Below, one piece after another: positions 1 through 40,400 of a DNA stretch of 64,000 nucleotides. The translations under genes and the position numbers were made by a program. The stretch's first letter is position 1; every line of letters starts with the position of its first letter. Source of the DNA: Lingula anatina (Eukaryota; Animalia; Brachiopoda); NCBI GenBank assembly GCA_051362555.1, contig CM120646.1, positions 14,632,001 to 14,696,000 of the forward strand, read 5' to 3'. Below the pieces are notes generated by a model. The model was given only the letters and a program-made list of their open reading frames with translations, was not told where the DNA came from and did not search any database.

Positions 1-474
1 TGGGCGCGTCAAGCCAGAAGATGGACCATTGGTGCCGCTGAAGTCTTCCACTACTACGTTATTAAAGCTGGTCGCATGCCTTTCTGGCCTGCCTTCTCCT
101 GGGGTCTTTGTTTCCTTTCATACTACGGCATCCTACTCTGTTCGGGAGGTTTGTACGGTATCTCTGCCGGTTTGTCTATGGCTTTCCTGGTAAAAGACTC
201 ACCGTTCTACATTTACTACGTGATGTACGGTTTGGCCGGGCTCCAGCAACTCGCGTTCCTTGGGGTTTTCATGATGGATGTATTCGGACCAAGATTGATG
301 AAGGTCAAAGAGCATATAAGTTTCGTTCGTAACTTTCTTCATTTTCTCCTCACTCCGCTGGTGCTACTAGGGTATTCCTTGGTGGAGTTCTACGCCCTGC
401 ACGAAGTTGCTATCAGAGGAAAGGAAGTCTGTAAACATGGCGCCTCAAAGAAGAGTGCACTGGGAAGTGTTTAA
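1..474 (+). CDS. GT2-family processive glycosyltransferase-like membrane protein, copy 1 (3' part of last exon; gene starts before the window)
   Basis: Frame 1 from base 1 reads WARQARRWTIGAAEVFHYY...KKSALGSV* and is nearly identical to the C-termini of copies 2 and 3. Stop TAA at 472-474. Confidence 0.9.
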   Translation, partial: WARQARRWTIGAAEVFHYYVIKAGRMPFWPAFSWGLCFLSYYGILLCSGGLYGISAGLSMAFLVKDSPFYIYYVMYGLAGLQQLAFLGVFMMDVFGPRLMKVKEHISFVRNFLHFLLTPLVLLGYSLVEFYALHEVAIRGKEVCKHGASKKSALGSV

Positions 475-3400
475 GTGATATTTTTGTACAGACCTAAAAA
501 ATTTTTCGGAAAGAAATCAAAAACCGACGGGTTATTCCTACTCGTGGGGACCACGCTTGCAAGCCACACGCTTTGGGAATTCGTACACCAGATATCAGTA
601 CTCACGTGCTGTTCTCAACTGTCACAGTACGTCAAAACTGTCTCGTTAATACCACTGAATTATATCTAACAAAGACCAGCTCGTTGATAACTACATTTTT
701 AGCAAATATTCTCCTTACAGTTGAGAAATGTAAACGTAATAACCAAAGAAATATCTTTAAATACCAAACGAGAATAAGAATTCATGTGACCCTGCTAGTG
801 GGCAATCATCTTATCAGTTAAAGCTTTTAAAGTGGTATTTTATCAATAATGATGCAGTCTCGTATCCATTTGAAAAACCCTCGTATTGCATATAACACGA
901 CTTGCATTATCTTTCTTTAATGCTATGAGTGGCTTCGATGAATGCTCGCTCGTTATCGTCAATTTTAAATTGATTGTTTATTCACCGTTAATTGGTAAAC
1001 ATTGTGCGCCCTCTTTAGGGGTTAAACCTTCTCCCAAACAGGTCAAAGTGGAAACTTTATGCTGAATACATGTACAATCGTGGCACTTGTTAGCGTTAGA
1101 TGCTGAAACTGCATCTCGGTGCCACGCGTTTTATTTAAAACTTTAGACTTCTTGTCTCTTGTGTTTTGTAAGACTTGTTCTGAACAGTTCAACTAAGACT
1201 TACTGTCTCTTTTGAGCAAATTTTAATTTATTCAAATTTAAACGTACACGTTTATTAATTTTTTTTCATAAAAGTACTTTAAGCTTTTAAAATAAATATC
1301 TTTTACTGTATATAAGGATGTTATTCTTAGTTAACTCCAGATTATTGTCTCGTGTTTATTTATTAGAAAATCACTCTATGCAATATAATCAAGCATGTTG
1401 CAGTAGTTTTCATATAAAATGCATTCCATTTCATTATGTGCAGATTATTACGGATTAGTAAAATGAATTAAGGTTTACTCTAAGTGAACATATCTCTATA
1501 AAAGAAATGTTGTTTTTTGTTATCGTATTGTTAAAGCTTTATGTTATAATATCGTTTTTACATTTAGGCTTCTGGTAAGCGACTGGTTGTTTGGTGCCTC
1601 GCTTGCTTGTCATAGTTGTTTTAACGATAGATTTGTTGTATCATAATTGTATATATATGCATATGTTAATTTATTAATAAAAAATATACATATTTAAACA
1701 AACTTAATCTATTTCAAACTTTATCTATTTTTACGTAATAACGACGAAGAATTAACACATTAATAAGAGCTCAGACAATTTATTATTTAGTTGAGCTCAC
1801 ACGAAAGAACCATTTTCGGACAAACTTTTCCCTTTCTTTAACACGCTAATGTTCGAAACAGAAACGTTCTTATTATTTTCGTTGTCGTTGTCTTCTGACA
1901 ATTCAGTAGACTTCGGCGGTTTAATGATGATCCATTTTTAGTTTACAATTACATTATTTGACAAGAAATGGTACAAAAACATTGAATCCAAGTGCAAAGA
2001 TGAGTCGAGACATAATTCATGGGATGGAAATTGTTTTTTCCTTTGGTGTGATTAAGATATAGGAAATATAAAATTTGTGTTACATTTAAATTTGCTTCAC
2101 GATGAGCCATGTTCAACGACGCGAACAACATTCACACAAACACTGATGAAAAAAATGATGCACTTATTTTCCAAGATGACGTTGACGTCCCTCTTCCCCT
2201 TTAAGAACACACAATGTTTGTTTCAATGCAGAATGGAATCAACAAAGAAACTACAATTTCCATTTTCCGACACTCTCCCACAAAACTGATGTTTATTCAT
2301 GTTCGAATGGAGACTGTGTGTAAGACGGCGCATGAAGTGGTTTTTGGCTTATTTTATATCGTTAATTGCATTCATTAGCGCAAAGATTACATATTTTGTT
2401 ATTTTGATAAACGAACGTACACAAATCAAGGTGTTTCAACCTCTTTGTTTTTATTGGTTATTTAGCACTTAACTGTCCAATTTTTTCTCTCAGGGTAGCT
2501 GCGATAATCTTACTACATGTTTGGTATGCTATGTGGCATTTTATATATGCAGAAAAACAATTGTTTTTGAATATCCTATATCTATCAATTTTTTAACATT
2601 CATAAAAATACATTTAACAAAATATTTCAATTTCAAATTATTTATCCTTAATCTGTTTACAATTTTAGAGTTTTTATGATGCACTCAGTTAGCAAGATAA
2701 AGCCCCTTTCCTCTTTAAAAAACATGTTTATTTTAATTATGTAAATGTAGAATGAACTTCACAAAAAAGCTTGGAGCAAGCTATGTGCTCGATTTCCATT
2801 GTTTGGACACTCCCGTTCGAAACTGGTGTTGGTACGAAGGGAAATTGTTTGTAAGACGACGCATGAAGTGGTTTGTGGCTAACTTAACAGCCTGTAAGCG
2901 TGTCCGTTCACACTTCGTTTGTTGTGGTCACTGGAGACGTCAAAAGGCATGTTAATTTCCTTGTGCTAATCAGATTTTTATCTGCTCCGGGTACACGTGT
3001 CCGAAAGTGAGAGTTTAATCCAAATGGCTTGTATTGAAACAAGTGCCCTCTCCTCATATGGTGTAATATATTTCAAAGTTGATAATCTTTTAGTATGCTA
3101 TTTATACTTAATGACTGACTGCAGATATTCAAATGTAAATTCTCTTAACATGCTTCAACATTCAAACATATGGCAACATACTTCCATAAAGATAGATAGA
3201 CAATAATTCATAAATACATCATCTAATTTGGAAGAACTCTGCGATTGTAAATATGTGAACATGTTTCCTTATACCTGTCATTGACTGACTGTCAGAGATG
3301 AAGATCTCGATATCAAGTCAATAATTATTATGGCGTTTTTTTTTTTTTTGTTTTTTTTTTTACATGAGGTTAATAATGCAATATGCACGATTATTGGATT

Positions 3401-3880
3401 CAAGTAAAAATTACATATTAGTATATCACTACCCTAAATAAGAAGGAAATGATAATATCTTTTGTTTCGTGTCCACATTCCAATTGGCGTTGAATATCCT
3501 TTATCAACATCAGTTTTTACATTTAAAAATTGCCTAATATATATTAAACAAAGTACCTCAATTTGAAATTATATATTATTCATCTCTTCACAGTTTTAAA
3601 CCCTATAGACGACTGTTATGAAGCCAGCTATACAAGTCTGATAGAAGGAAAAGTTGGCAAAGATGCATGGGGCATCTGTACTTAATTTTTCACAAAATAG
3701 GGCTAATGGTTTTAGAATGACAAACATAATTTGAAGTAAAAATGCAAAATTTTGAAAAGCTGCCATAAAATAGTTCACATCATGATTGAATAAATCGTCA
3801 GCAACTCTGAATAAACTTAGAAGAAACAGGTCGAAATACACTGTTAAAGGGCTAGAGTCTAAAGTTTTAAAAACCCATAC

Positions 3881-4028
3881 AGTAGAGTAAGGCTCCGTTG
3901 ATTGGTTGAGTAAGTCGTATGCCCTATCAGCAGCCCGTGGCAGGTACGAACATGTTCGTTCCAGTGATAACCTCACCTCCCCTGGTGTCATTACCTGAGG
4001 ACAGGTGAATGCGTACGTCACAAAACTC
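3881..4028 (+). promoter_or_regulatory. Conserved non-coding element upstream of GT2 copy 2 (paralogous to 10719-10868)
   Basis: About 150 bp, nearly identical to 10719-10868, including a long exact core ccagtgataacctcacctcccctggtgtcattacctgaggacaggtgaatgcgtacgt. Flanks align much more loosely. Contains ATTGG (CCAAT), TGATAA (GATA), CAGGTG (E-box) and GAACATGTTC. Confidence 0.55.
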
Positions 4029-4052
4029 CATTATAAATTAATTTTTTATTTC

Positions 4053-4053
4053 C

Positions 4054-4090
<37 letters not shown>
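4053..4090. repeat. (CT)n microsatellite
   Basis: Visible dinucleotide run. Confidence 0.9.
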
Positions 4091-4092
<2 letters not shown>

Positions 4093-4214
4093 ATACAATT
4101 GGCGTCTTGTTTACACTTAATTTCGGACACAATGGCCATGAGTAAGGGCGTGAGTGAGCGCGAGATATGTGGGCGTGTGTGTGTTTGTGTGCCTGTTTGT
4201 GTGCGTTTGAGACC

Positions 4215-4474
4215 ATTCCCAGAGACTTTCGATCTATCTCCAAGGGGAGTCTCACTAAATTGCTATCAACTTAAGCGGCTTATATGTCTGTCACGCCTAC
4301 TAAAGCTGTAAGGGGGTAGTTAACTACCGGAGGCCGAGCCTGCACGAAAGTTGATTACCCCCTAGCTGATTTGGTAGGCGTGACAGACATTTAAGCCGCT
4401 GAAGTTGATAGCAATTAAGCGTGAATCCCCATGGAGTGAGACCGATTCTGATGGATCGATCTAGGCATGGGAAC
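4215..4474. mobile_element. Foldback/MITE-like palindromic element, family A
   Basis: Left arm aattgctatcaacttaagcggcttatatgtctgtcacgcctac is the reverse complement of right arm gtaggcgtgacagacatttaagccgctgaagttgatagcaatt. Termini are TTCCCA...TGGGAA. Related copies at 5321 and 61248. Confidence 0.75.
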
Positions 4475-4499
4475 CCAGTCTCCTCTAAACACGATTAAC

Positions 4500-5058
4500 C
4501 AGCAATGTGTTCCTGTTTTGTCAATAAAATCATAAGTTGTTTCAGTGTGATAATTTCAAAAAAAAAAAAAAAAAAAAAAAAATGGAGGAGTCAGCGCGAA
4601 TCGCGCTTGTGAAGAGACGCAATCTGTGTTTCAGTTGCTTAGATGCAGGACATTTTCCCGATAGCCGTAGTTAGCTGTCTATGTGCAGAGTGACCGGTTG
4701 TGCTGGCAAGCACTCTAGATTATTTCACGTCACCGATCAGTTCGTGATAATGCTGTTTAGCCTGATAAGCCCACGAGTTTTTAGGTCGCGTTAATAAATA
4801 GTGGTGCTCTTTCAGCACCGTTACGTGAGAGTTTGCACATTGTTACAGTTAGGGTAAATAACAAGACAAAAGGACTCGCGATTTTGGATAGCGGGTCCAC
4901 GTCTTCTACCATATCTCTGTACTTGACTTCTTTTCTTTGCCTTGATACAAATGATAAAGTTCAGTGTCTGCTACAATTCAAAGTTTATTCGGTCAACTGT
5001 TGTTTAACTTGACGTGTCTCATTGCAACGACACTTCGAAGACATACCGCCTGTTTTTT
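4500..5058 (+). mobile_element. Degenerate BEL/Pao LTR-retrotransposon gag-protease fragment
   Basis: Translates FCQ*NHKLFQCDNFK...MEESARIALVKRRNLCFSCLDAGHFPDSRS*LSMCRVTGCAGKHSRLFH (BEL/Pao-type triple zinc knuckle), then LHIVTVRV...AILDSGSTSS (aspartic protease, DSG near 4887). Internal stops are present. Confidence 0.8.
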
Positions 5059-5061
5059 CTG

Positions 5062-8000
5062 ATGTCGGGGAGTGACAGCGAAAGTGGCATTGACAGCACT
5101 CCACATAGTGCGGTAAGCACACCCCAAAGACATTCCAAAAATAAAAAGCCAGTCTCGAAGAAAAATGTGGATTTCTCTAATCCCAAAGAAGGTAAGGTAT
5201 ACCAGCCACTAGTATATGAATGGCAATTATTAAAGCGGCATACAAACCGAGGGAGGGTGCTATCATAGTTGTTGGGATGATATAACAGTGATGTCAAAAA
5301 TTGTCAAAAATCTTAGACGCCATTCCCATAGATTTTACATCGATCTATCCCTGTGGGGAGTCTCACTAGATTACTGTCAGCTTAGCCGGCTTCAGTGTCT
5401 GTCCCGCCTACTAAAAGCTGTAAGGGGGTAATTAACTATGGTGCGCGCTCGGCTGACGGCAATTTAGCGTGAACCCCCAGGGAGTTAGGTCGATCTAAAT
5501 CTCTGGGAATGCACCCTTAAATAATCACCACCATCAGATGTATATATTATTCGTCAAACGCGATTTTTTCTTTCGTTTTTTGTCCGTTCTTCGCGTTCAG
5601 TTTTACGCTCTGCGGTCTTCGAAAACGGTTTGCGCGCGCACAATTCATTCACTGCGCGTGCACCTTTTACTATACTAGCACTATCAGGGCTTCCTAACCA
5701 GTGCGTCATTCGACGTTGTCTCAGTGCAAGGTTTCCGAACGTTAAACGTCTTAATACCACTCTTGTCGTGCCATTGTCCTATCTATTATAACCCTTCTAT
5801 TCGTGCAAGTTTTGTGTCGTACTTCCTTCTGCTTTATCCCTCTTCTGTACTAAAAAGTTTTTTCTTCGCATCGTCCGCTGCATTGACTTGTTAAATTAGG
5901 ATAGGCACGTGGTACGCCTGTTCACTCGACCTTCACTGATGGAAAGTAGGTTGAGCAGTTTTCCCACACTTCTTCCCGACCGTTCATTCATATGCTAATA
6001 TCTGAGTCACATGACACGCAAAGTACGTTACAATTGCGAGATGTAAATGCGATTTTAGTTCTTTATTTCTACATACTTGGCGCGCGTTAGACGTTATATT
6101 TGACTTAGATCTTGTTTATTTGAAGTGTTTGGTGCTGTGAAAGTGCTGTTTTTGTGAATAATTGCAAACAAAAACCGCTTTGTATGCCCGTTTTAAGTAC
6201 TGTAAAAGTACTGTTTTGCTAACAGTATTGAACACTCCAATAGTATATCAATGCCCTGGTAGCGTTAAGGTGATACAACTCTTCTGTTAGATTTCATTTT
6301 GTTGGTCGTGTGACCATTCTCATACATGGAATTCACTGGTAATTCGGGACGCATGGAGGCGGTCGTGGAGTGAACGTAGAATTTTGATTGCAACTGGTGA
6401 ATACAATTATTTTGCCTTTTTAAGAATTAAAAAAAATTTTTTACACAAATCCACGTAGTTTTATTCAACTGGAAGGTAAGATTTTGGATGGTAATTCAGT
6501 GAGAATTTAAGTTATGTGCGTATAATTCCCTTGTTTACCTTTATGATGTCGTGGTGGTGGCCGCTGTTTTGGAATTTTAAGCTGTGCATATCGTTTTTTG
6601 AATGAAAAATAAAATTACGGTAAAAAGTAGAAAGGTGCATTTTTTCGGTAGGTGTTTTAGCCATAATTATATATATATGTCAGAGTAATTCTTGTTGGTG
6701 TTAATTATCAAAATCAGTCCTCATTATCGGCCAGTGGTGGTTTACCAGAAAAATATATCACCTTTTGAGCATGGAATTTGAACTGAAGTACAATTGTTTG
6801 GTGAATTTTACATGGTTTGACTATACGCATTGGAGCTGCGTTCGTTTTTAAAACAACGGTAACACTGTTTCCAACATGGGCACTGCGCAAGGAACACCGC
6901 TAAAAGGGATTTTAACTCTTTTTTAACGTTTTGTCCAAAAAATGAATTTTCCTGGAGTAAACAACAATTTCCCATACTTACCAATAGTTAATGAATCCAT
7001 TTTTACATTCAAAGTTAATCCCTGTTTTTTTCTAAAAACGTTTTTTTTTGTTATAATCTCTTAAAAGATTAAAACAGGGTATAGCCATCAGTGGAGGTCG
7101 CATGCTCAGAAATCAGAATTATAGCTATAACTGCCGTTTTTGTGGTAAACCAGACGCGTGGGGAGGCGTGTGAGAGGCGGAGAGACCATTACAGGATTAA
7201 GCGGTCTTCATTTCACCATTTTTGAGCCTTGGACGATTGATATTCGGATCTTCTATCCTGAATGGCCCCAAAGTTATCATTTTATATCGCAAATAGTGAG
7301 ACGCTATTTTTTCAAATAAACAATGGCTGCCTATGTATGTCTTCTTAATTCATGCAAAATTTAACCATGCAATCCACTACTGAGCCAGAATAAAAAAAGG
7401 CTTTTCTTGTCCTAAGTGGGCCCTGCAACATTATTCATATACCATTCATATACCATACTTTTCCTAAAAACCACAGCAGAAAAGAGAAAAATGTAATGGC
7501 TTTGTTTCATAATATTCCATACTTTAAGTAAGAATGTATGGTTTGGCCTATGCTATGTAATGGGTATTTACCAACCCATCGCTGCATTGTTGTTATGTAA
7601 CAGGGTATTTCTTCTCCTTTCAGAGCTGCAAAATGAAATGAAAGTGCAATACAAAGCAGGTTCCCAAGATTCCACCAGGGCCAAACAGAACCAGATTTAT
7701 GCCGGCGTCCAACTATCGCCGAAGGTTCTTACCCAGAAAGGAGAAGGTTCACCAATAGAGAACAAAGACCGTATCGCCGTATTTTCAGAAGAAAATTACA
7801 AAACCCAAAGAAATTATACAGCAACTAATGAACTACCTCCACAGGAAGACCTCTCAGAAGGAAAATCACCACTTCATGGGGCCATTGACACAGCGGTTAC
7901 TCATAAACCATTAAAGGCAGGGAAACAGAGGTTCAGGTGGAACCTTATATTTAACCTTCTCTTCTGGATCATCGTCCCAATGCCTGTGTGGGTGCCGTTT

Positions 8001-9578
8001 GTGTCACAGACCGTCGCCTGGTACTTAATTCCCGCTGTCCAGGCTGTGTTTGTCTTCATGTGGGTGGTCGTGGTTACCTTGGCCTGCAAGAACATGATTG
8101 TCCTTTACATGTAAGTATTGGCTTTTGAATGACCTCTAAATCACAAAAGATACTGAAGCCGCAAAGAAACAATGAAGAAAGATGTTTTAGTTTTTCAAAT
8201 TTATGTAGATTGTTGTGTTAAAGTACATATAATATTTATTATTTTTTAAAAATATTACTGCCGCAAAAAATCCTTCAATTCATATTCTCTACTTCTTTAT
8301 TTCAGGAACAAAAATAAAGATTTCCGAGAAGACTATCCCGACTACATTGAAATCCGCCACCTGGTGGTTATCAGCTGTTACAAGGAACCAGTAGAACTGA
8401 TTGCAAGAAGCGTTCAGACTTTAGCAGACCAGACCGAAGTCGGGCGCATCTCCATGTTGATTTCATTTGAAGAAAAGACACCGGAAGTGCAAACCAAATG
8501 CGATAAACTTCGCGAAATTTTTAAGGATGCTGGTTTCGAGCGTCTAATCCTCAACATTCACCCCTTTGGTCTTCCAAATGAGATCCCAGGAAAGTGCTCC
8601 AATGTTAATCACGGCCTCCGGCAGGCGACACAGGTAATGCAAGAGGAGCTTGGGGCATACTTCGATGCTGAAAAGATTATTGTTACCAATTCTGACGCCG
8701 ACACACACTTCCACCCTAGCTACATCGCAGCTCTGACTTCCAAGTTCATAAAGGAGAAAACCCCACATGGAGTCATATTCCAGGCACCCTTGTTCTACAA
8801 CTGGGGTTTGGATGGAAGTAGCTTTGTCACCCGTGTAACCGGCCTTCTGCGCACCACTCTGATGATGGGGGCTCTGATCCCATTCAACATCAATTCCATG
8901 AGCATTTTCTCCTTTTCCTTGCGTCTGTGTATTGACGGAAACTTTGGTCACCCTGCATACCAGATGGAGGATATTATCTGCCTCATCCGATGGATGGGCG
9001 TAACTCGTCGCCGCCTCCGTATTCCGATGATTCCGGTCCCCGTCATCAGCGGACCCACATCCGGTGAGACCGTGGAGCTAGAAGTGGCTGAGTGGGCGCG
9101 TCAAGCCAGAAGATGGACCATTGGTGCCGCTGAAGTTTTCCACTACTACGTGATGAAAGCCGGTCGCATGCCGTTCTGGCCTGCCTTCTCCTGGGGTCTT
9201 TGTTTCCTTTCTTACTACGGCGTCCTGCTCTGCTCGGGAGGTTTGTACGGTATCTCTGCCGGTTTGTCTATGGCTTTCCTGGTGAAAGACGCACCGTTCT
9301 ACATTAACTACGCGATGTACGGTTTGGCTGGGCTCCAGCAACTCGCTTTTCTTTGGGTCTTCATGATGGACGTATTCGGACCAAGGCTGATGAAGGTCAA
9401 AGAGCATATTAGTTTCGTTCGTAACTTTCTTCATTTTCTCCTCACTCCGCTGGTGCTACTAGGGTACTCCTTGGTGGAGTTCTACGCTCTGCACGAAGTT
9501 GCTGTCAGAGGAAAAGAAGTCTGCAAACATGGCGCCTCAAAGAAGAGTGCGCTGGGAGTTGTCTCATCAACAGTTTAG
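5062..9578 (+). CDS. GT2-family processive glycosyltransferase-like membrane protein, copy 2 (5'-truncated; 629 aa if the ATG at 5062 is used)
   Basis: join(5062..5191,7624..8110,8306..9578). GT-AG introns, phases 1 and 2, same as copy 3. Motifs YKEP, EIPGKCSN, NSDAD, QMED, QARRW. Two N-terminal and several C-terminal hydrophobic helices. Start codon uncertain. Confidence 0.8.
5321..5511. mobile_element. Foldback/MITE-like element, family A (internally deleted copy)
   Basis: CATTCCCA...TGGGAATG termini. Shares ggggagtctcacta and gcctactaaa(a)gctgtaagggggta with 4215-4474. Confidence 0.7.
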
Positions 9579-10718
9579 GGACCTGGATTTTATATATGGT
9601 AGCTCACAAGCAGAAAGTGTCCCTTTTTTGGCGATATTCATGGGTCTCCCTAAATATCGGGGAGCAACCCTATTTTATCGGAAACCGTACTGGTTTCTGT
9701 TAGTATATATCTGTGCAATATGTCTTCTTATAAACCTGATTACTTGAACTCTGTATATATATGTGCACATGACTCATGGAACAGAAATAGCGCATGTCTT
9801 CTACTACTGCAATTATCTCCTGTAGTTTTTGACAAGAGTAAATTGGAATATACTGTATTTCTTGTGTTATGGGAAGGAATGTTCCTTAACCTGAAAGAGT
9901 GTATCCCAGGCGTGTAATTTACCGTGATAATTTAAGTCCTAATCCTAATGATATGCAAGGTTTCTATCTATAAAATGGGATGAAAAAAGAGCATGTGACA
10001 CGACAATTCAAAAGTTGTGAAATTGAAATATTCTACTCCAAAGAAGTTAGGAAACACTTAGAAAATCAGATATTAAAAAAGTTAACTGTCCAATAGCTAT
10101 TTATATCTGCTCTGTACAATGTCAGAGGGCGAGGGCTGCATCCAAATGACAACAAATTGTAATCAAGTACCCTCACGTTGTATGGTGAATTTCCTCAATC
10201 ATTATCTTACATTATCTGACAGCCCAATTATTTCTATTGGTAATATATCATACAGCTGTGCCATTTTTATGTAAGCTCCGATTAATTAACTATATCTTTG
10301 AAAACTTGAACGCGGGATTTTCATAGAAAAGCAATAAAATTGTCTGCATTAATATTCTAACACTAAAAATCGTCACGAATAAAAAAGTATTTTACGAAAT
10401 CCATCAATCTGAAAATGATAGATCCCTACACCTGAGCACATTTTCGGTGCTTTGAACGCTGGTGTACCTAAAAATATTCAGGTAGATAACAGTAAAAGGC
10501 CTGGGGTGAAGATGCCAACTTCATCTTGAAATAGTGCTTATATTGTGTGATGTCTTTTAGAATGACAATGAAAAATATGAAATAAAATGCAAACGTTGGA
10601 AAAACTGCCACAACATATATAAAATCATAACTAAATAAGTTTACAAAGATGCATAAACTTAGAAGGATCTGAACGAAATACGCTGTTAAAGGATTACAAT
10701 TTAAAAAAGAAATCAGAC

Positions 10719-10868
10719 AGTAGAGTAAGGTTCCGTTGATTGGATGAGTAAGCTGTTTGTCCTATCAGCAGCCCGTGACAGGTACGGACATGTTCGCTCC
10801 AGTGATAACCTCACCTCCCCTGGTGTCATTACCTGAGGACAGGTGAATGCGTACGTTACAAAACCCTT
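10719..10868 (+). promoter_or_regulatory. Conserved non-coding element upstream of GT2 copy 3 (paralogous to 3881-4028)
   Basis: See 3881-4028. Looser homology extends over about 10500-11000 versus about 3650-4190. Confidence 0.55.
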
Positions 10869-12418
10869 TTATTATTGAACTCTTTTTGGCTTTCTCTTCG
10901 CTCTCTAGGTTACGGTTTACGGCTTGTTTTCACCTCGTTGTAGACACAATGGCATTGAGTAGGGGCTAGGGCTGTGGGAGCGGGCGCGCGTGTGTCTGTC
11001 AGAGAGGAGGGGGCGAGAGAAGTACATGTACCTACAGGTACAGTGGAGTGATACAAATAGAATTATGTTGTTCACAAATAAGAATTGAAACGGAATTGAA
11101 TGCTTCTTCTCATGAACTATGTTCAGTACATTCGCAACTGATATCTTTAAAAGAAAAATGTACTGTATCTGTCATGCACAGTAATTAATGTGTTAAAATG
11201 CTATATCACCTTAAAGTGAACCAATTTATTAATGGGGAAGGTAAAGACAAAATAATAAGAATTTAAAAAAAAGTTAAATATAAAATCAATATCGAGATTA
11301 TCTATATTATAATAATATTATGAACAAAATCACGTTAGGATATGGTCACAATCCGTCAATTTCTTGCTAGGCGCGTCATTCAGGTCACAAAAGAAACTCG
11401 CAGGAGTTTGAACCAACCATGTCTTCGAGCATATGTAGTCACAAGCTACGAAACATCTCTCAGCCATAATTTACGGACTCTTGGGTGTCATTGACAAGCG
11501 TACTCAAAAGATGACAACCCTGATGAGCCTTTATAAGCACGTCAGCTTCCTGCAAAATGTCGTTACTTCTAAGTTAATCATTTAGGCGATGACATGAAGA
11601 GTTCATGTTTACGGCCAAATCCTACCTGCAGGCCAACTGAGCATTGTAAAGGAATTACAATAATGTCGTTCATGGAAAGTTATATAGATGACATAAATAA
11701 TTGAATAAATATAGTCAAATGCATGTTAAGCTATTAAACTGAGCTCTCATTATCTACCTGTACATGTGGACGAGTTTCCAAACTGCAGAAAACAGCCCAT
11801 ACACATTTAGCCATATTGTTGCATATTGATAGTCGTAATTAAATGCTACATTCTACTAGTGGAGATAAACGTAATTTAACGTTGGTTAAAGAATTGATTA
11901 GACAGGAAGTTGCTTCACATATGATTCACGAGGTTTCCCTAAGCTTCCCTAAGGTAAGATAAAGGAATGGGTTTGGCCTCTTATCGGTATTTTGGAAACT
12001 CATCTACAAGTACAATGTAGATAATGACAGCTGAGTTTGATAGCTAAACATACGTGCTCTCTCCCCTGTCTTGTGTGATATCACCCGACCACCGACCTGG
12101 CACGGTAACTTCATTGTTGCATATTGAGGTGGGTGTTTTAAAACTCACTTTTTTTACTAATCGATTGTTTTTATAGTCTTTATAGTGTGGTTATCGATTT
12201 TAACACATCTCTGATGTACATATTAAGGAGTCCCATATTTACAAACATTTCTGCACACATTTCGTTGGTGGGGTTTCAAGGAGACCCACATTATGCCAAA
12301 TATTCTGTAAGACCCATCATCCTTAATATTATAATGTAATGTGTCAGCATAAGCTATTGACAACATTGCATCTGTTAAGCTTGTCCGATTGCAAAGGTGA
12401 GGCTAAAGCAAGCTATGC

Positions 12419-12560
12419 TATAAATAAGCTCTGGAGATTGTTATCGAATCGTTATAATTGGTATCATTTGACCTCGCCAAACTCCTCGTTGTCAACAAAG
12501 AGCGATCGCTGTATCTGAGACATTATAGAGGCATAGCTTCTAACATCACTACGAACCAAG
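12419..12560 (+). promoter_or_regulatory. Candidate TATA box and non-coding first exon of GT2 copy 3
   Basis: TATAAATA at 12419-12426 and a strong donor CAAG|GTAAGA at 12560/12561. The ATG exon of copy 3 is preceded by an acceptor (tgtttttacag at 15851-15861), which implies an upstream UTR exon. Confidence 0.45.
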
Positions 12561-13382
12561 GTAAGAATTTTTTAACAATAAATATGATTAAATTTAAAGA
12601 AAACGCAGCACATTTATTTTTTCTTTCAAGTATGTTGTTGCTTTCATTCGTTTAAGTTTATTTCCATGTTATTTCATAGTCACATTGATTATTAGCTGCA
12701 TGGTGCCTCTTTTTCAGTTACTTTTTATTTATCTATTTTTATTTCTTGACACGAGCGTAATCTCATTTAACAGGCTTATGGTATCCACGTATTTACCTTT
12801 TAATACAGTTAATCGCTATAACATTATTTAGGGTGGGGTCATTACAAACCATCCACACGCAACGAAAATGTCAGTAAAAATTGAGGTTTTAAATCCTCAT
12901 GAAAATACAACATGAAGCCAAACTTTACTTGCAAGTGTTTCAAGGCTGTAAAGACATGCAGGTTTACAATTCTGTCAATATTTTGCGTAGTCTTCGGACG
13001 AGCCGCAGCATAAGACTTTTACTTTCCCTTTATTCCTAGAGTTAAACTTAATTAGAATACGTATGAGAGGAGACGGGGGCGCCACTTATGAGAAGGCCAC
13101 AGCTTTTGTAGGCTGGAGGAAAATTTGCTTATTTGGGTGTTCTGAAAAGTTGTTCAGTAATTTCTTTATGCTCATTTGTTTAAAGTCGTCAGGACTTTGT
13201 ACATGGTTGTTTCATGACATTTCTCAGATATCTGAGGGTAAACTTGCATTTTACTGCACATTTGGACTAAGATATCGGGACTTTCAACGCACTGGAAGCC
13301 AATACTGAAGAGACAAGTTACACTTGTTATATATGTTGAATTTGGATTTCTGCTCACCCAAGGACAAATTGTTCTAAGTGCA

Positions 13383-13631
13383 GATTCAGAACAAGTTGAC
13401 CCGCGGACTAAATATTGCCGCCCCAACTTAAAAGCAAACCACCTAATCTCCTGTTGGTATCCCCGTCCCCACACGCGTCGTCCCAGCAGGGGCCTATTAA
13501 TAAAACCTCGGAGCCGAGATGGGATCCGCTTAATGGCGCGTGTGGAGACCGGGGGACCATCATGGGATTAGGCGTCTTGCTTTTAAGTGGGATCGGTCAT
13601 ATTTAGTCTGCAGATCATCTGCTCTGAATGC
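13383..13631. mobile_element. Foldback/MITE-like palindromic element, family B
   Basis: gactaaatattgccgccccaacttaaaagcaa pairs with ttgcttttaagtgggatcggtcatatttagtc. The terminal part (ccgcggactaa) resembles 63143-63334. Confidence 0.65.
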
Positions 13632-13869
13632 GCTCTAACAGAACCATGAAAAGGTATGTATAGGCATATGCGACAGATATGCTGATAGACATTGATGCCA
13701 AAAGTAAGTGAGGGGTATCATCAAATACCTGGGCAACGATGAAAGACCTAAACATAATTATACCTGCGGGGGTCATGGTGTATGGTGACCCGAAGCAAGC
13801 CAATATATTGTGAATATCATCTATTATGACATAATGAGGTTTTCCTCTGAGCTAAAGCAGATGGGTCCC

Positions 13870-15785
13870 AACTTTGATAATTTGAGGAGACCGATAACAA
13901 TAGATTGGTTAAATATGGAGGTGGTAACAAACGTGTTCACTAGACATTGGAAAACTATTACCCCAGCCTATGAGTCCGTAGAGGAAAAAGAAAAGCCCAT
14001 TCCTGGATGATATAAAAACAATTGACAAACCATACTCAATGACCGGCCTTTCGTTTACAATAGCCACAATGAACAGTAGATCAGTGAGGAAAACAGCAGT
14101 GATGATACGTGATTCCGTTTTGGAAAACAACCTCGATTTGATAACTATAGTTGAAACCTGGCTTACTCCCAATTTGAACCTGTCGGTATTGGCTGATATG
14201 GTCCCCACTGGTTACAAATGCATTCAAATACCGCGACTAAAAAGACCCGGCCGTGAAGTAGCATTTCTTGCCAAGAAAGTTTCCGGATGAGGCAAGTGGA
14301 ACCTGTCGTTTCTCCAACCTCCTCAGCACTTGTTGAACCACGGGCAGAATTATCGGTGGGGCTTGAATGTTGAGAAGAGATCAAAGGTTAATCAGCTGAG
14401 AGCAATTCCTTCTCAAAGCCAACTGCGTGCGGACATCTCCCGATTATCGGTGACCTTTTGTGTCATTTAAACAGGTAGGTACAGACCAGGTGAGACTTCG
14501 GGTGGATGAGATAACAAACTCTAAGAGATTAGGTGAACGCATATTTATTGTATTATTTTGGAAGCTACATGAGAATATGATACTAGTATGTTTGTTCATG
14601 AAGGAATTCAAAATGCTCAATACGGTGAAGTAAATTGTGTCCGGAAAATGTTTTTTTTTACTCTCAATATCGGCCCTCATTGCAATATGTCGTCACACGA
14701 GCATTTGTGATACCCAGAAATGCACCTGTACGCTTTTTAATATTTTTTAATCATCATTGACATCAACCATGTTGTGTTCTTCATAAAAAGATGGATGTTA
14801 CCGGCTAAGGGCTGCTTGAATTTGGGAATGGTAATTAATAATTATTAACTCTCAATATCGGCTCTAGTTGCATTTAAATGGCGTCACACAAGCATTAATG
14901 AGACCCAGAAACGCACCTGGGTATCTTTAAATATATTTTAATGTTGACATCACCACTACTAAGAACAGAATCCTTCCATCGAAGAAAAACAACATCAAAA
15001 ATTCTACCTTCTTTGAAGAGGTCACCGACCACCTAAAATAACTTCATGTAGAGCCCCTATCAGAACGGCCGACTGTGCTAGAAGATTCCAATATAGATTG
15101 GGAAGAACTGACAACAGTGAAACAAATAAATTTATGTCAAGTCTGGATAGTTTCAATTTAGAAAAACATTTTATTAGGTAAAACCATGTGCATAGCCACA
15201 CACTAGATCTGATTATAACCAAGAAAAAGGATGAACTTGTAAATTTCTGTTCTATTGGTCACCTCCTCTGTGATCGCCTCCTCTGTGACCATAACGTGTG
15301 GAAAGCCACTGCCAGTGAAAGAATCAGTTTTCATTGAAGAATGAAAATTTGAATCCTCTCGAGTTGTAACAGATCTTGGAAGAGAAATTATTAAATGTTA
15401 GTATCAGCGACCTAGACCCAAACTGGTCTGTTGAGTTACATGACAAGCTGCTGTCTAATAGTTTCGACATCATACTGTAGGTCCAATGAAAACAACTTTA
15501 TTGTCAAGAAGGACTTGCAGCCAAGGATGAATTGTGATATCCTGAATGCGTGAAGGAGAAAACGGAAGGCAGAAAGTTTATGGCGTAAAACCAAACTCAC
15601 TCACCAAATCTACAGAAGTGAATGCAACAAAGTGAATGGCCTAATCAAATATATAAACTCGGTTGTATACTCGCTGTATCATCAAGAAACCATGAAATTT
15701 CCTTAAAACGAAATTGAAAAACCGTTTTTCCAATCTAAGGGCCTGGATGGTAAAGAACAAACCTATGATAAATAACAGCACTATA
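13870..15785 (+). mobile_element. Degenerate L2/CR1-type LINE fragments (AP endonuclease plus RT remnants), interrupted
   Basis: 14039-14290 reads TMNSRSV...LDLITIVETWL...PTGY (APE motifs). About 15180-15220 reads HSHTLDLII, about 15550-15650 RRKRKAESLWRKTK, and about 15730 LRAWMVKNKPMIN (end of RT). Many stops and frameshifts. Confidence 0.75.
14660..14958 (+). repeat. Two diverged ~190-bp tandem units
   Basis: actctcaatatcgg...cgtcacac...acccagaaa(t/c)gcacctg...ttgacatca occurs at 14660 and 14848. Confidence 0.7.
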
Positions 15786-15868
15786 TATTTTTATTCACGG
15801 TTATTTTCATGCATTTTAGTGGCCAAACTATGCTTTATTCATTATCTCTCTGTTTTTACAGATAAACA

Positions 15869-18800
15869 ATGGCTGACGTTGTTCCGATTTCCTTCACACG
15901 ACGATTGAGCGTGAGCGTGGACGATTTTTCATTTAAAGGGAAAGTTGGTCCCACTCTCCCTAGTGTTGACAGTGGAATAAATATACAAGTAGATATACAA
16001 AGCAGCAGCTTCACCTCGATGGACACTGTGTCACGTGTCTCAAAATCCGTCAATCTCGACAAACAGGTCCCGGATTGTGACGGGAGGTTTCACTGCTCCC
16101 CTGCTGATGATGGGCACTCCATCGTGGATGACGACACCGCCAGTGTGACGTCAGGAAGTGACAGCGAAAGTGGCATTGACAGCACCCCAGAAAGTGCGGT
16201 TCACACACTCCAAAAACCTTTCAAAAATAAACAGCCAGCCTCAAAGAAAAATGTGGATTTCTCTAATCCCAAAGATGGTAAGGCTACCAGTAGTACCTGC
16301 TACGCGTATGTTAATGACGATGATTAAAAACCTAGCAAAGAAATGATTCCAATATATAAAAGCCATAATGCTCATCTTTTAGATTTCAGAGGGGGCATTA
16401 TCACCCTTCAAGTTTACATGACAGAGAAAGACTTCAACTATGCATCTCAGCGACAATACATTAACCTTCTATTCTCACTTTTGTCACACAGAAGATTAAC
16501 CTGCAATCAACTTTGTGCACTTCTCTACAAATTTGTTCTTAATTAAAAACATTCACTAGTTACTGGTTACATGTAGTTCAAGTATATCACTGGTTTTCTA
16601 AATACGACAACAACAGAATAGAGAGAAATGCTTAGGCCTAGTTTCCGAAATATTCCGTATTGTAAGAAAGAGTATTTTCTTTGTCCTACACGAAATACGT
16701 ATTTACAAACCTATCACTTTCAAACGTACGCATCTAACAAGATACTTAAACTGCATTCAGAACTGTCACGGAAACTGAAGGAGCAATACAAACCCGAATA
16801 CCTTGATTCCACCATGGCTGAGTTTCAAGTGGAACAGAACATAACGCACGCTGGCGTCCACCTTTCATTTAGTGGCGAAGGTCTCGCAGAAGAGAGCAAA
16901 GACAGTATCACCTCAACATTTTCAGAAGACGATGAGAAAAACACAAGAAAGTATATCACGGCAGGCAGTTATGAACTACCTCCAGAGGGAGCCGTCCCAG
17001 GAAGAAAATCACCAATTCATGGTGCAAATGACACAGGAATTTCCCATAAACCAATGAAAACAGGAAAACAGAGGTTCAGGTGGAACCTTATGTTTAACCT
17101 TCTCTTCTGGATCATCGTCCCAATGCCTGTTTGGGTGCCGTTTGTGTCACAGACCGTCGCCTGGTACTTAATTCCGGTTGTCCAGGCTCTATTTGTCTTC
17201 ATGTGGGTAGTCGTGGTTACCTTGGCCTGCAAGAATATGATTGTCCTTTACATGTAAGTATTGACTTCTGAATGACCTCTTATTTTAAAAGATATTTAAG
17301 CCACGAAGAAACAATGACGAAAGATGTTTTAATTCTTGAAATTCGTGTTGATCGAAATATACAGGGTTACCACTTAATATGGAATATTATTTTTTGGCGA
17401 GTAAATTTTCTACAAAATATTTATTTTCTCTCTAACTACTTTACATCCAAATCTGAGGTGTCACTCCCTGAGTAGCCAGGTGTGTTACCTAATTACCATA
17501 CAACTCTCGAAACAATTGATGCATGCAGTTGCATTTTCTGTGGTCAGAAATGTGAGGGGTGGTCTTTTCGGCAATTTCTGCCCTTGTATAAAAACGCATG
17601 GGTTTGGTCAATCTTTGGAGTGTGTTTAGAGAAGCAACAATGGGATCGCACTGAAACTTGACAGGTACCTTATTGAAGATATGGTTCGACAGCTAAGCAA
17701 AGCAGCTTACTATGGGACTCTTGCTCTCAGAGAAAATGTCCAGAAACGGACAGCCATTGCCAGGTAATTCAACATTTATCAAGAACCGTTTGTAAAGTCC
17801 TCCAAAGAAATGCTGCAACAGGGGCACCTACTCCAATACCTCGACCATGGTGTCCGCGTATCACACCAAGAAGACAGGATCGCCTTCTCCTTAGAGGACG
17901 CCGTGCTGGTCGTACAAAGGCAACCAGTGTCCTCAGAAAAGAGAGGCAGAATGTCATTCAAACGCCCGTTTCAACGTCAATCGTGAACAAGAGATTACTG
18001 CAAGCCGGTTATTTTGCACGAAGGCCAGTAGGGAAACCACTGTTAACAGCAGGTCATATACAGCGACGCCTGCAATGGGCTGGGGACCACGTGCGTTTGC
18101 AGCCAAAACACTGGAATCACGTCGTTTTCAGTAATGAGGCCACATATGGATCTTTTAGGGTTGATGGTCGAATCCGTGTCCACCGACGTGTACGAGGGAC
18201 ATAAAACGATGGTTGTGTACTACCTAGGGTGCAAGCAGGGGGTTGTAACGTCTCTGTTTGAGGAGAATTTCATGTCGGTGCCCAGAACCAGTTGGTTTTT
18301 GTAAGAGGCAACCTCAGCCAGGATTCCTACAAAGACATTCTACGGCAAACGATGCTTCGATTGGTAAGAGCCATCTTCAAGGACAACTTTGTGTACCAAG
18401 ACGACTGCGCAACCCCACATCGAGGCCGCAGAATCACTGTTTTTCTTCAAAACCAATGGGTTCAGCAACTGCCCTGGCCTACAAACTCTCCAGATATGAA
18501 CCTAATTGAAAATCTTTGGGCAAAAGTAACTCACAAAATTAATAGCTATGGTCATTGGCCGGTAAATAGTGATGAACTGCGACAGGCAAATATCACTGCG
18601 TGGAATGATATCCCCATCCAAACTCTACAAAACGTGTTACAGGGTATGCCATGTAGGATGAGGGCGCTGCAAGCGGCTGCTGGAGGTCATACCCGCAATT
18701 ACTGGCTTTTCATGATTTACTGTAGTGAGTTCTTTGACTGTGTAACATATCACTGTCCGGAGGCTATCATTTACTTTAATATCTTAGCTTAAAGTTAATA

Positions 18801-19020
18801 CTGACATTAAACTGTTGATGTGGTTTTCTGGGGGTGTTCCTTTCTTTTGAATAGCATCTTATGTCAGATTTGATATCATTGACCAAAATATCTCACAACA
18901 GAAGACTGGATGTTTTTATTACTCAGTGGCATACTTTTTTAATGACTCAAGCCAAAAAAAAAAATTAATCAGTACTCAAAAATAACAATGATAAAAAATA
19001 TTCCATATTAAGTAGCAACC

Positions 19021-19076
<56 letters not shown>

Positions 19077-20615
19077 GGAGTGCATGTGTGTGTCTTTTTC
19101 ACGAAGAGGGCTCAAACTGGTGATACTGGGAGGATGTACCAAGTCGAACGCATTATGTTGATGTAACCGGTGGTTTCACGGATGCTTTTATTAACATAAA
19201 AACACCAATCTTCAGACATCCGCCTTCACCTTGAAATACGTATTGTGGTGAGTTCTTTTGAAGAGAAGACACCGAAACAAGATGTATATATTTATAGGCA
19301 TACCATCATTGCCACAAAATTCTAAGATTAATATGCTATAATTTCGTATTTCAGGAGCAAAAATAAAGATTTCCGAAAAGACTATCCGGATTACACTGAC
19401 ATCCGCCACCTGGTGGCCATCAGCTGTTACAAGGAACCAGTAGAACTGATTGCAAGAAGCGTTCAGACTTTAGCAGACCAGACCGAAGCCGGGCGCATCT
19501 CCATGGTGATTTCCTTTGAAGAGAAGACACCGGAAGTGCAAACAAAATGCGATAAACTTCGTGAGATTTTTAAGAATGCTGGTTTCGAGCGTCTAATTTT
19601 CACCATTCACCCGTTTGGTCTTCCAAATGAGATCCCAGGAAAGTGTTCCAATGCCAATCACGGCCTCCGTCAGGCGACGCAGGTAATGCAAAAGGAGCTT
19701 GGGGCATACTTCGATGCTGAAAAGATTATCGTCACCACTTGTGACGCCGACTCATACTTCCACCCTAGCTACATCGCAGCTCTGACTTCCAAGTTCATGA
19801 AAGAGAAGACCCCTCATAGAGTCATATTCCAGGCACCCTTGCTCTACAACTGGGGTTTGGATGGAAGCAGCTTTGTCACCCGTGTCACCGGTCTTCTCCG
19901 TACCACTCTAATGATGGGGGCTCTCATCCCATTCAACATCAATTCCATGAGCATTTTCTCCTTTTCCCTGCGGCTGTGTATTGATGGAAACTTTGTTCAC
20001 CCCGCCTACCATATGGATGATATTATCTGCTTGATCCGATGGATGGGCGTAACTCGTCGCCGCCTCCGTATTCCGATGATTCCGATCCCTGTCATCAGCG
20101 GACCCACATCCGGTGAGACCGTGGAGCTAGAAGTGGCTGAGTGGGCGCGTCAAGCCAGAAGATGGACCATTGGTGCAGCTGAAGTCTTCCACTACTACGT
20201 GATTAAAGCTGGTCGCATGCCTTTCTGGCCTGCTTTCTCCTGGGGTCTTTGTTTCCTTTCTTACTATGGCATCTTGCTTTGCTCAGGAGGGTTGTACAGT
20301 ATCTCTGCCGGTTTGTCCATGGCGTTCCTGGTGAAAGACGCACCGTTCTACATTAACTACGTGATGTACGGTTTGGCTGGGCTTCAGCAACTCGCTTTTC
20401 TTGGGGTCTTCATGATGGACGTTTTCGGACCAAGATTGATGAAGGTCAAAGAGCATATCAGTTTCGTTCGCAACTTTCTCCATTTTCTCCTCACCCCGCT
20501 GGTGCTACTAGGGTACTCCTTGGTGGAGTTCTACGCCCTGCACGAGGTTGCTATCAGAGGAAAAGAAGTCTGCAAACATGGCGCCTCAAAGAAAAGTGCA
20601 CTGGGAGTTGTTTAA
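15869..20615 (+). CDS. GT2-family processive glycosyltransferase-like membrane protein, copy 3 (full length, 720 aa)
   Basis: join(15869..16277,16761..17253,19355..20615) = 2163 nt, open throughout, GT-AG introns. Ser/Asp-rich N-terminal tail, 2 TM helices, GT-A domain (YKEP, EIPGKCSN, TTCDAD, HMDD, QARRW), then C-terminal TM helices. Confidence 0.9.
17362..19023 (+). mobile_element. Tc1-type DNA transposon (degraded DD34E transposase) in intron 2 of GT2 copy 3
   Basis: TIR cagggttaccacttaatatggaatatt / aatattccatattaagtagcaaccctg, TA on both sides. Broken ORFs contain RRPVGKPLLT, WNHVVFSNEA, YQDDCATPH, NSPDMNLIENLW and GGHTRNY. Absent from the homologous 195-bp intron of copy 2. Confidence 0.92.
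19024..19073. repeat. (TA)n microsatellite at the Tc1 target site
   Basis: TA run begins directly at the right TSD. Confidence 0.9.
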
Positions 20616-32200: not shown

Positions 32201-32500
32201 ATACAAAGTCCTCAGACTGTATAATTAATTTTTTTTCTTTTTAAGGATAACTTTTAGGGTTTGTTTAGGTAGCAGAGCAACTGTATCCAGCAGTTACATA
32301 TGGAGCTGTTTCGACGTCAAGAGGTATAATGTTATAATTTTAAAAATCTTTTGAAATTTTGTTACCGAAGCATGATGTCTCTTCGCGTCTCTCCAATTAA
32401 CCCCATTTCCAAGTCCGAATATCCAAAATAATGACGTTGGCTCCCTTGTTTTTAAGGCTGATTGGATTGTGTATTTCGTATCAAACACTGCATTACGCAT
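26270..32500 (-). CDS. NDUFA4: Cytochrome c oxidase subunit NDUFA4 (COXFA4)-like small membrane protein, 4 exons, ~128 aa
   Basis: complement join(32366..32500,32025..32113,27119..27173,26270..26377). Canonical GT-AG, phases 0/2/0. Protein ...DAKRHHAS|MVPMILCTVATTALAAWFTARTCYLAPDI|ILNKINLIEDLDPEKYCYR|FYSPTIDW... aligns by eye to vertebrate AKKHPSLIPL..[TM]..RLALFNPDV...YKFYSVNVDY. Lies head-to-head with PHF14. The exact start codon is less certain. Confidence 0.78.
27487..29953 (-). mobile_element. Sola2-like DNA transposon, internally deleted, in intron 2 of the NDUFA4-like gene
   Basis: 16-bp TIR gggtcaaaacacggta/taccgtgttttgaccc, TTAA on both sides, GRG terminus. Minus-strand remnant 28574-29110 has VHYWSDG..QFK and AHGKGPVD. 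About 9 subterminal copies of TGTCTCTGACGGGACA. Confidence 0.8.
30297..31893. mobile_element. Non-autonomous hAT-like element nested in a MITE
   Basis: TIR CAGACATGCTGAAA/TTTCAGCATGTCTG, subterminal (g)accgg/ggtccg repeats at both ends. No clean TSD and no transposase ORF seen. Confidence 0.7.
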
Positions 32501-32890
32501 CGTTGCGGCCCCTACTACTAAATGCTGTCACCCCAGCGCTATGTACGATTCAAAGATGGCTGAAGGTAGATGGCTGCAAAAAGAACAATGCCCCGTATGT
32601 AGGTCATTATATACTCTCGTGTATATTTTAAACCATAATTCTCAAACCGCTGTATTTGTCAGAATATTGTCAAATTGGTTTGTTTTGTTTTATTAAATTA
32701 GAAATCAGAAAGATCTGATAATTAACAGATTGTAATAAGTATATGCATGAGAATAGTTTTGTTAATATTACCAATACCACTGAAACTATCTCCAATTTTT
32801 TGACTCGTTTCAGTAAAATAACCCTGTGTAGCAATTAGGACATAACAAGTGAAATCGAGGTCCGTATCTTTAGCGTAAGGAAAGTACAAG
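32501..32890. promoter_or_regulatory. Candidate bidirectional promoter between NDUFA4-like and PHF14
   Basis: Only 390 bp separate the divergent predicted start codons. YY1-like AAGATGGC near 32553. Confidence 0.5.
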
Positions 32891-37279: not shown

Positions 37280-37310
<31 letters not shown>

Positions 37311-40300: not shown

Positions 40301-40369
40301 CTACATGTAGCAGCAATCCTGATAAAACGGTTGTAAAGTCAGCATGTTTTTATCACTTGATTTTGTTCC

Positions 40370-40400
<31 letters not shown>

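Follow-up and report, generated by a model that had tools for sequence, protein, structure and literature searches.

What is a tandem array of family 2 glycosyltransferase (GT2) genes doing in the genome of a brachiopod, and how did it get there? The array lies in 64,000 nucleotides of the Lingula anatina genome (contig CM120646.1 of assembly GCA_051362555.1, positions 14,632,001 to 14,696,000), here called the window. Few membrane-integrated enzymes of this kind are known in animals, namely chitin synthase, hyaluronan synthase (HAS), the cellulose synthase (CesA) of tunicates, and egghead. If brachiopods, limpets, rotifers, copepods, and many nematodes keep an extra family with its catalytic motifs intact, then some animal glycan must be without an assigned enzyme. 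An earlier reading of the sequence alone (the sequence-only reading) saw in the array a cellulose-synthase-like system, possibly acquired horizontally. The GT2 subfamily is real and apparently undescribed. I propose that it is an old, much-lost protostome family, amplified in Lingula, whose members would be minimal processive synthases, likely of an extracellular glycan. Resting as it does on analogy with better known enzymes, the proposal has, in my judgment, about an even chance of being right.

The window contains three GT2 genes, head to tail on the forward strand, their stop codons spaced 9,104 and 11,037 nt apart. Their parts, and two associated elements, are as follows (TM, transmembrane helix).

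1..474, + strand: 157-aa tail of copy 1, the last part of its catalytic exon, from QARRW to the stop codon
4582..5009, + strand: degraded fragment like that of a retrotransposon, with pieces resembling a Cys/His knuckle and a protease (LDSGS)
5062..5191, + strand: copy 2 exon 1, truncated at its 5' end by comparison with copy 3, encoding a low-confidence tail
7624..8110, + strand: copy 2 exon 2, encoding tail, FRWNL motif, and two predicted helices (TM1, TM2)
8306..9578, + strand: copy 2 exon 3, encoding a variant GT-A domain (NSDAD/MED), the interface helices, the predicted TM3-4, and a terminal HGASKK that resembles a gating loop
10555..10906: non-coding stretch 3' of copy 2 that belongs to the repeat unit and duplicates 3710-4071, its counterpart behind copy 1 (80% identity)
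15869..16277, + strand: copy 3 exon 1, N-terminal tail
16761..17253, + strand: copy 3 exon 2, encoding tail, FRWNL motif, and two predicted helices (TM1, TM2)
17254..19354, + strand: copy 3 intron 2, phase 2
19355..20615, + strand: copy 3 exon 3, GT-A domain with TCDAD/MDD, QARRW, predicted TM3-4, HGASKK end

Copies 2 and 3 each have three exons, encoding 629 and 720 aa, with intact frames, no internal stops, and four introns that are all GT-AG, in phases 1 and 2. The sequence-only reading was right that there are at least three such genes and that the catalytic and C-terminal membrane part (~420 aa) occupies a single exon. That exon is no sign of recent transfer, since it is common to bdelloid-type relatives. 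Copy 2 differs from L. anatina LOC106153447 (P0001) at 2 of 629 residues, so the DNA in the window is that of Lingula. The tail of copy 1 is nearest to P0122 (1 mismatch in 157 aa), the tail encoded by copy 3 exon 1 is 80% identical to the N-terminus of paralogue P0125, and copy 3 exon 3 is identical to residues 18-437 of P0121. The public model of P0121 starts with a short exon (10790-10843) and omits TM1-2, and I take it to be wrong.

The array arose by local tandem duplication. It likely extends beyond the window to about six genes, because six of the seven members of a 90%-identity cluster, from which copy number outside the window was estimated, share one 513-kb contig. The seventh lies on another contig, one residue in 360 from P0125, and is probably an allele of it. 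The homology of copy 2 to copy 3 exon 1 begins at 5060, about 93 first codons being gone, and immediately 5' of the truncated exon stands the gag/protease-like fragment, whose Pfam matches are weak (Asp_protease_2, E=0.016; DUF1758, E=0.076). Near the active site TCDAD has become NSDAD and MDD has become MED, similar to P0124. Copy 2 may be a specialised or a decaying copy.

Could the array be foreign DNA, a product of misassembly, or a row of pseudogenes? The truncation of copy 2 might suggest so, as might its letters in the RNA: all 95 reads at position 8689 carry a letter that is not copy 2's, and in run X8 the diagnostic letter at 8692 appears in 2 of 66. Against this stand the GT-AG introns and intact frames, divergence between copies (dS 0.14-0.35, dN/dS 0.04-0.15, four comparisons) that shows purifying selection, spliced sense reads, and animal genes as neighbors (NDUFA4-like and PHF14-like). 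For the array as a whole the idea is refuted, and I give it hardly any credence. The sequence-only reading had argued against contamination on similar grounds, to which the match to LOC106153447 may be added.

The RNA evidence comes from seven runs with the same species label, from other individuals, in which alleles and paralogues are not fully separable. Exon 3 is covered in all seven. Stranded runs are mainly sense, except X2, which has some depth on both strands. Reads joining exons 2 and 3 across intron 2 of copy 3 number 10 in X5 and 14 in X7. For intron 2 of copy 2 there are 41 exact GT-AG joints in X8, and joints with two other letters in X5 (10), X6 (2), and X2 (2). Loose read ends in X5 carry P0125-type exon 2, 70 reads in X8 run into a 3' flank resembling that of copy 1, and at positions 20071-20090 of copy 3 the letters of the window are found in 3 of 7 reads in X1. 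Transcripts of the family thus exist and are spliced, but most of the reads derive from paralogues of copy 2, and copy 2 itself is nearly silent in the runs examined. Intron 2 of copy 3 also houses a Tc1/mariner remnant (HTH_Tnp_Tc3_2, DDE_3; ~17677-18792), relatives of which are transcribed in the RNA runs.

Where else is the family found? Three homologue searches provided the best 120 of 276, 147, and 302 matches. Among the matches listed, the animals are Lingula, the limpets Patella and Lottia, the bdelloid rotifers Rotaria, Adineta, and Didymodactylos, the copepod Lepeophtheirus, the tardigrade Paramacrobiotus, and many nematodes, Plectus and C. elegans included. The listed non-animals are Pezizomycotina fungi, a diatom, the haptophyte Prymnesium, dinoflagellates (Durusdinium, Cladocopium, Yihiella, Ansanella), the diplonemid Rhynchopus, and a few cyanobacteria, much as the sequence-only reading, recalling relatives in fungi, protists, and bacteria, had anticipated. 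No insect, vertebrate, bivalve, or annelid is among the named matches listed; as the lists are cut at 120 rows and restricted in protein length, this does not show absence. The closest relatives of the Lingula gene in these lists, P0002-P0009 (71-78% identity), are probably lophotrochozoan by their position in the tree; loci of this closest group (L007-L010, L016, L020, L022) bear introns, with flanks that offer no Pfam clue. Between C. elegans C09F12.2 (NP_509848.2, Q93199, WBGene00007482) and P0001 the identity is 36% over 528 aa. When a profile of the family was used for searching, 260 representatives came up at E <= 1e-30 and 1,236 at 1e-10, the weaker full-length matches being GT2_3 proteins like those of Minisyncoccota and Chloroflexota. 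No relative was found in IMG/VR with two alignments, nor among PLSDB plasmids with two queries, and reading L031 and L080 in the ciliate code gave no long frame. Database fusions of the GT2 to sulfotransferase, ThuA-like, SerH, and other domains (P0052, P0088, P0097, P0527, P0231, P0250) are probably merged gene models.

With such a distribution, one may suppose, as the sequence-only reading did, that the brachiopod lineage acquired the gene from a microbe by horizontal gene transfer (HGT) and then amplified it. The family is patchy among animals, and its cyanobacterial members are close (43% identity). The GT2 exons (8306-9578, 19355-20615) have a third-position GC content of 0.57, compared with 0.39 in a receptor gene and 0.34 in the large PHF14-like exon nearby, a difference for which gene conversion within the array is one candidate cause. 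Moreover, the survey of Crisp et al. counts C09F12.2 among its validated cases of class A HGT, the best match being fungal and none from Metazoa exceeding 38 bits; the label demands that no metazoan match reach 100 bits (PMC4358723).

The trees tell otherwise. In the main tree (48 hand-chosen rows, four outgroup proteins as root, quick IQ-TREE with LG+G4, SH-aLRT support only), Lingula groups with its intron-bearing relatives (96), then with limpets (92), bdelloids (99), and copepod-type proteins (99). A clade of Lingula with cyanobacteria is rejected by the approximately unbiased test (p-AU 1e-67). The cyanobacterial members nest inside the eukaryotic diversity of the family and are rare: a pattern scan of 185,579 genomes gave 51 matches and, among these, three loci, and of 401 genomes of the phylum one has a member, that one being the seed itself. 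The codon and phase of intron 2 are identical in 11 of 15 loci, including three of bdelloid type (best named match Adineta), three other bdelloid-type loci having a different intron and one locus looking degraded. Five copepod-type loci have four to six introns in the N-terminal half and none at this site. Thus the gene does not sit within a non-animal clade without orthologues in other phyla, as a recent transfer would have it; orthologues exist in limpets, bdelloids, and copepods. Since these include spiralians, the premise of the class A label is undone as well: the Lingula protein matches C09F12.2 with 312 bits. A call of validated class A HGT can evidently mask an older animal ancestry. 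Acquisition by the brachiopod's own lineage is largely refuted and very improbable, and inheritance from at least the spiralian ancestor is, I believe, likely.

How much older is the family? Nematodes, fungi, and further rows form a separate branch (100). A clan of spiralians, copepod-type proteins, nematodes, and fungi is not rejected, either with 48 rows (p-AU 0.163) or with 54 rows and two long branches dropped (p-AU 0.574). Adding the tardigrade to the protostome clan is rejected (p-AU 0.0055), and so is forcing the fungi and two further rows outside it (p-AU 0.0003). The tardigrade protein, P0334, stands apart from other animals, with the diplonemid and Suessiales dinoflagellates (98); it is probably an independent acquisition. 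The ascomycete copies (P0170-P0259; loci L036-L038, L040-L042, L045-L048, L065, L072) share 90-92% identity even between the classes Sordariomycetes, Dothideomycetes, and Leotiomycetes, and introns are wanting in most of the fungal loci examined, which together suggest a recent spread among fungi, one that a nematode donor would fit. The orphan cyanobacterial loci (L001-L003, L028, L029, L033) are candidates for transfer from eukaryotes to cyanobacteria. A transfer into stem protostomes long ago, or several transfers, might yet account for so patchy an occurrence and for a tardigrade copy placed outside the protostomes.

What kind of enzyme is this? YKEP, HPxxxxxEIxGKxSN, DAD, (E/D)D, and QARRW are all found in the window's copies, as the sequence-only reading had named them. 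Chitin synthases have EDR and QRRRW. None of QRRRW, EDR, GDDR, QQxRW, HLDEE, WGT, or TED occurs in copies 2 and 3, and the absence of the chitin synthase, HAS, and egghead motifs likewise agrees with what had been noticed. Identity as chitin synthase was rejected for want of EDR and QRRRW in both copies; identity as HAS, for want of GDDR, WGT, and the last two membrane helices (TMH5-6); and identity as CesA, for want of TED and of membrane helices after the gating loop. That the protein is none of these three thus holds up.

Within the family, D338, D428, and R475 are found in all 104 rows and D336, Q472, and W476 in 103, while near the C-terminus H614 is kept in 98 of 99 rows and K619 in 97 of 99. 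C09F12.2 has the full set of family motifs: RWNL, YKEP, HPxxxxxEIxGxCSN, HPxYQM(D/E)D, SGPTSG, QxxRWTIGA(A/G)EVFHY, and GKxVCxHxxSxK. The last marks the end of the chain, its lysine aligning with the F/YxxTxK-type ends of six of six outgroup proteins. No clear coupling was seen between residues 334 and 427 across the family. Pfam GT2 models (PF00535, PF13632) match at E 5e-5 to 2e-3, all under the gathering cut-off; NCBIfam has no match for any of eight proteins; and PDB holds no sequence relative by phmmer or profile (rows for SRP54, a spike construct, and eL22 were set aside as chance, E >= 0.11).

An AlphaFold2 model built on a 114-row alignment (pLDDT 81.5, pTM 0.81) gives the predicted layout. 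The tail proposed to be disordered has pLDDT below 50 over much of residues 1-128, and the two helices proposed to precede the GT-A domain are there (149-170, 172-206). Three interface helices follow (379-396; 462-493, with QARRW; 576-612), and helices 496-531 and 537-567 may be read, by analogy with HAS, as TM3-4, so that the GT-A domain would sit on three interface helices between two and two membrane helices. Foldseek puts HAS on top (E 2e-10, 10-14% identity). VIA-align gives Z 22.7 for the mannosyltransferase PcManGT (rmsd 4.4, 332 residues aligned), 21.5 for E. coli BcsA (rmsd 4.1, 374 aligned), and 20.8 for CvHAS (rmsd 4.2, 377 aligned). A second model, of family locus L039, compared with 48,161 chains, left the leaders unchanged (PcManGT, Z 22.4). 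A viral fold library returned only distant giant-virus GT2 proteins (8-15% identity). The predicted structure, then, has the membrane-integrated GT2 fold of the cellulose-synthase superfamily, and the family appears to keep the catalytic machinery of a synthase with four predicted membrane helices as against six in HAS. The HxxSxK end would be a variant gating loop after the third interface helix. The earlier label of cellulose-synthase-like survives for the fold (VIA Z 19-23) and no further, the protein having no helices beyond the gating loop.

If the analogy with BcsA and HAS holds, then a membrane-embedded inverting glycosyltransferase would use a nucleotide sugar to build a polymer outside the cell, a glycan of cuticle or surface matrix. 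The DxD motif (D336/D338) would bind metal and diphosphate, D428 would serve as general base, W476 of QxxRW would stack the acceptor, and the C-terminal HxxSxK loop would gate the donor site. The chain might leave through a minimal channel of four helices. Four helices need not exclude polymer secretion, since mycoplasma galactan and glucofuranan synthases, which are reported to make capsule polymers, are modelled with three-helix channels (PMC11658790).

C. elegans provides a clue to where such a glycan might go, in the one functional datum that was found. C09F12.2 oscillates with moulting, at log2 amplitude 2.38 and peak phase 165 (PMC7370751). Hand-picked comparators, 11 of 12 of which were found in the dataset, have these amplitudes and phases: chs-2 2.73/321, bus-8 2.61/287, noah-1 3.42/227, lpr-3 3.63/228, dpy-7 3.54/232, mlt-11 3.60/232, bus-17 1.32/260, gly-8 0.82/281, clc-1 1.04/76, and bre-3 0.58/88, with sqv-5 not oscillating (PMC7370751). 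The oscillation favors a role in the cuticle cycle, modestly.

PcManGT is non-processive and acts on a lipid acceptor. The chief rival explanation is a transferase, non-processive or making short chains, on a lipid-linked acceptor (glycosphingolipid or polyprenol), like PcManGT or like egghead/BRE-3. PcManGT is the top VIA match of both models, the chain stops at the gating loop with no further helices, and the cyanobacterial members are orphan genes, with no shared partner or export genes adjoining at three loci. Yet the two N-terminal and two C-terminal helices align with BcsA and HAS over 374-390 residues, as against 327-332 for PcManGT, the three-helix mycoplasma enzymes are reported to make polymers, and the amplitude of oscillation is nearer to that of chs-2 and bus-8 than to that of the glycolipid enzyme bre-3. 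I consider such a transferase a serious contender, though on the unlikely side.

NodC-like and PgaC/PgaD-like enzymes provide parallels for another view, that the enzyme is processive and lacks a pore, making oligosaccharides, or that a small partner protein completes its channel. Such an arrangement would make sense of a protein that retains QxxRW and a gating-loop-like motif and lacks the last channel helices. Against it, no common partner gene was found at the three cyanobacterial loci, beside the fungal loci scanned, or in the Lingula array. I think this view improbable.

Several considerations weigh against the proposal of an old protostome family of processive synthases. HAS has GDDR, WGTSGR(R/K), and six membrane helices, with TMH5-6 forming part of the channel (PMC11750622), and an equivalent of TMH5-6 appears to be missing from the family. 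After K619 only 6-10 residues remain in the Lingula copies, and of 100 aligned rows the 90 with the terminal lysine have tails of median 16 residues, none of which contains a hydrophobic 19-mer (at a strict hydropathy cut-off of 1.6, which misses even the predicted TM3-4). The claim rests on tail length and hydropathy because the fold ranges are indecisive: the match of the L039 model stops at residue 486 of XlHAS1, whose gating loop is at 485-503 (PMC11750622), and several HAS alignments of the first model run to about chain residue 550. PcManGT is the best fold match, with BcsA and HAS within one or two Z units, and the orphan bacterial loci provide no clue to a pathway. The cuticle-cycle role is favored only modestly because 24% of expressed C. 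elegans genes oscillate, by an oscillator coupled to moulting (PMC7370751); the comparators were chosen by hand; and C09F12.2 peaks about 60 degrees ahead of noah-1, lpr-3, and dpy-7. Tissue data for the gene were not found in the supplements of PMC10289653 and PMC9629831 or in 3 of the 22 files of PMC6105014. As for the family's age, vertical descent requires very many losses, nematodes do not join spiralians in most free trees, and all trees are quick LG+G4 trees with no mixture model or bootstrap.

In full-text searches of the literature for C09F12.2 and WBGene00007482 nothing was found, and the listings from topic searches showed no paper that describes the family, within a scope that did not extend to subscription journals or to the supplements of bioRxiv preprints. 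C09F12.2 otherwise appears only as a table row, in the parts available of the HGT survey (PMC4358723) and the oscillation dataset (PMC7370751). The Lingula genome paper discusses an expansion of chitin synthases (PMC4595640); the word glycosyltransferase is absent from its main text, and the array goes unmentioned there and in the part of the supplement available.

Carried to its conclusion, the proposal is that protostomes have, besides the synthases already known in animals, an overlooked processive one with four helices that secretes an undescribed polymer into cuticle or surface matrix. A stem protostome would have handed it down, most lineages would have lost it, Lingula and the bdelloids would have multiplied it, and ascomycetes would have received it from nematodes. 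This larger picture I offer tentatively, as less likely true than not. If it is true, then the passage from nematode to fungus reverses the published call for C09F12.2 based on a fungal best hit. The family is found in parasitic nematodes and the salmon louse; as no vertebrate is among the named matches listed, it might, were it essential, offer a selective target. Seen as a transfer, the family surprises less than first proposed, and it is more tractable, by way of a model organism.

Two animal genes and a number of other elements share the window with the array.

26270..32570 (approximate ends), - strand: NDUFA4-like gene, with spliced joints in 4 of 4 RNA runs
32900..52061 (approximate ends), + strand: PHF14-like gene, domains PHD, zf-HC5HC2H_2, PHD, PHD

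The two genes stand head to head, as they do on human chromosome 7. The NDUFA4-like product, whose B12D match is weak (E=0.0046), is 128 aa from the first Met, presumably longer than in vertebrates. An intron of this gene contains a transposon-like insert (27400-30000) with repeated short motifs, read coverage, and two minus-strand open frames that have no Pfam match. A tandem duplication of ~1.2 kb, 93% identical (45482-48020), lies within an intron of the PHF14-like gene. MITE-like palindromes, some common to several sites, are found at 4213-4479, 5320-5438, 13384-13629, 35635-35706, 61248-61459, and 63143-63334, and a single frame at 59411-60883 encodes a rhodopsin-family G protein-coupled receptor of 490 aa, the receptor gene compared above.

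How, finally, does the family compare with known systems? PcManGT (PDB 6yv7), an archaeal membrane mannosyltransferase and the top fold match, has a GT-A domain and a small membrane part, but it is 12% identical and the match starts at model residue 174, so PcManGT lacks the first helix. The hyaluronan synthases CvHAS and XlHAS1 (Z 18-21) resemble the family in two N-terminal helices, GT-A domain, three interface helices, QxxRW, and gating loop. They differ in GDDR and WGT, which the family lacks, and in TMH5-6, for which it has no room, at about 10% identity. BcsA and the CesA of plants and tunicates have the fold (Z 17-21.5), DxD, the base Asp, and QxxRW in common with it, and their FxVTxK-type ends align with HxxSxK; the family, however, has MDD or MED in place of TED, and no helices or regulatory domain after the loop. 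One further paper, in the part available, deals with CesA only (PMC6523144). The comparison with egghead/BRE-3 is at the level of motifs: HLDEE is absent from copies 2 and 3, and C. elegans bre-3 is B0464.4, a gene distinct from C09F12.2. The fold rows listed do not include egghead, and nothing is excluded thereby. The mycoplasma galactan and glucofuranan synthases provide, by analogy, a precedent for polymer secretion by GT2 enzymes modelled with three channel helices. GT2_3 proteins of the Minisyncoccota/Chloroflexota type have HP..GK.N, DxD, xED, and QxxR and end at the gating loop (ESM Atlas score 0.98 for their clusters, profile matches near 150 bits), but they are 18-25% identical to family rows and form the outgroup (100). 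C. elegans C09F12.2 belongs to the family itself, with all its motifs and the same predicted layout, on a separate branch common to the ascomycete copies, and as a gene that cycles with moulting it makes the function of the family tractable in a model organism.

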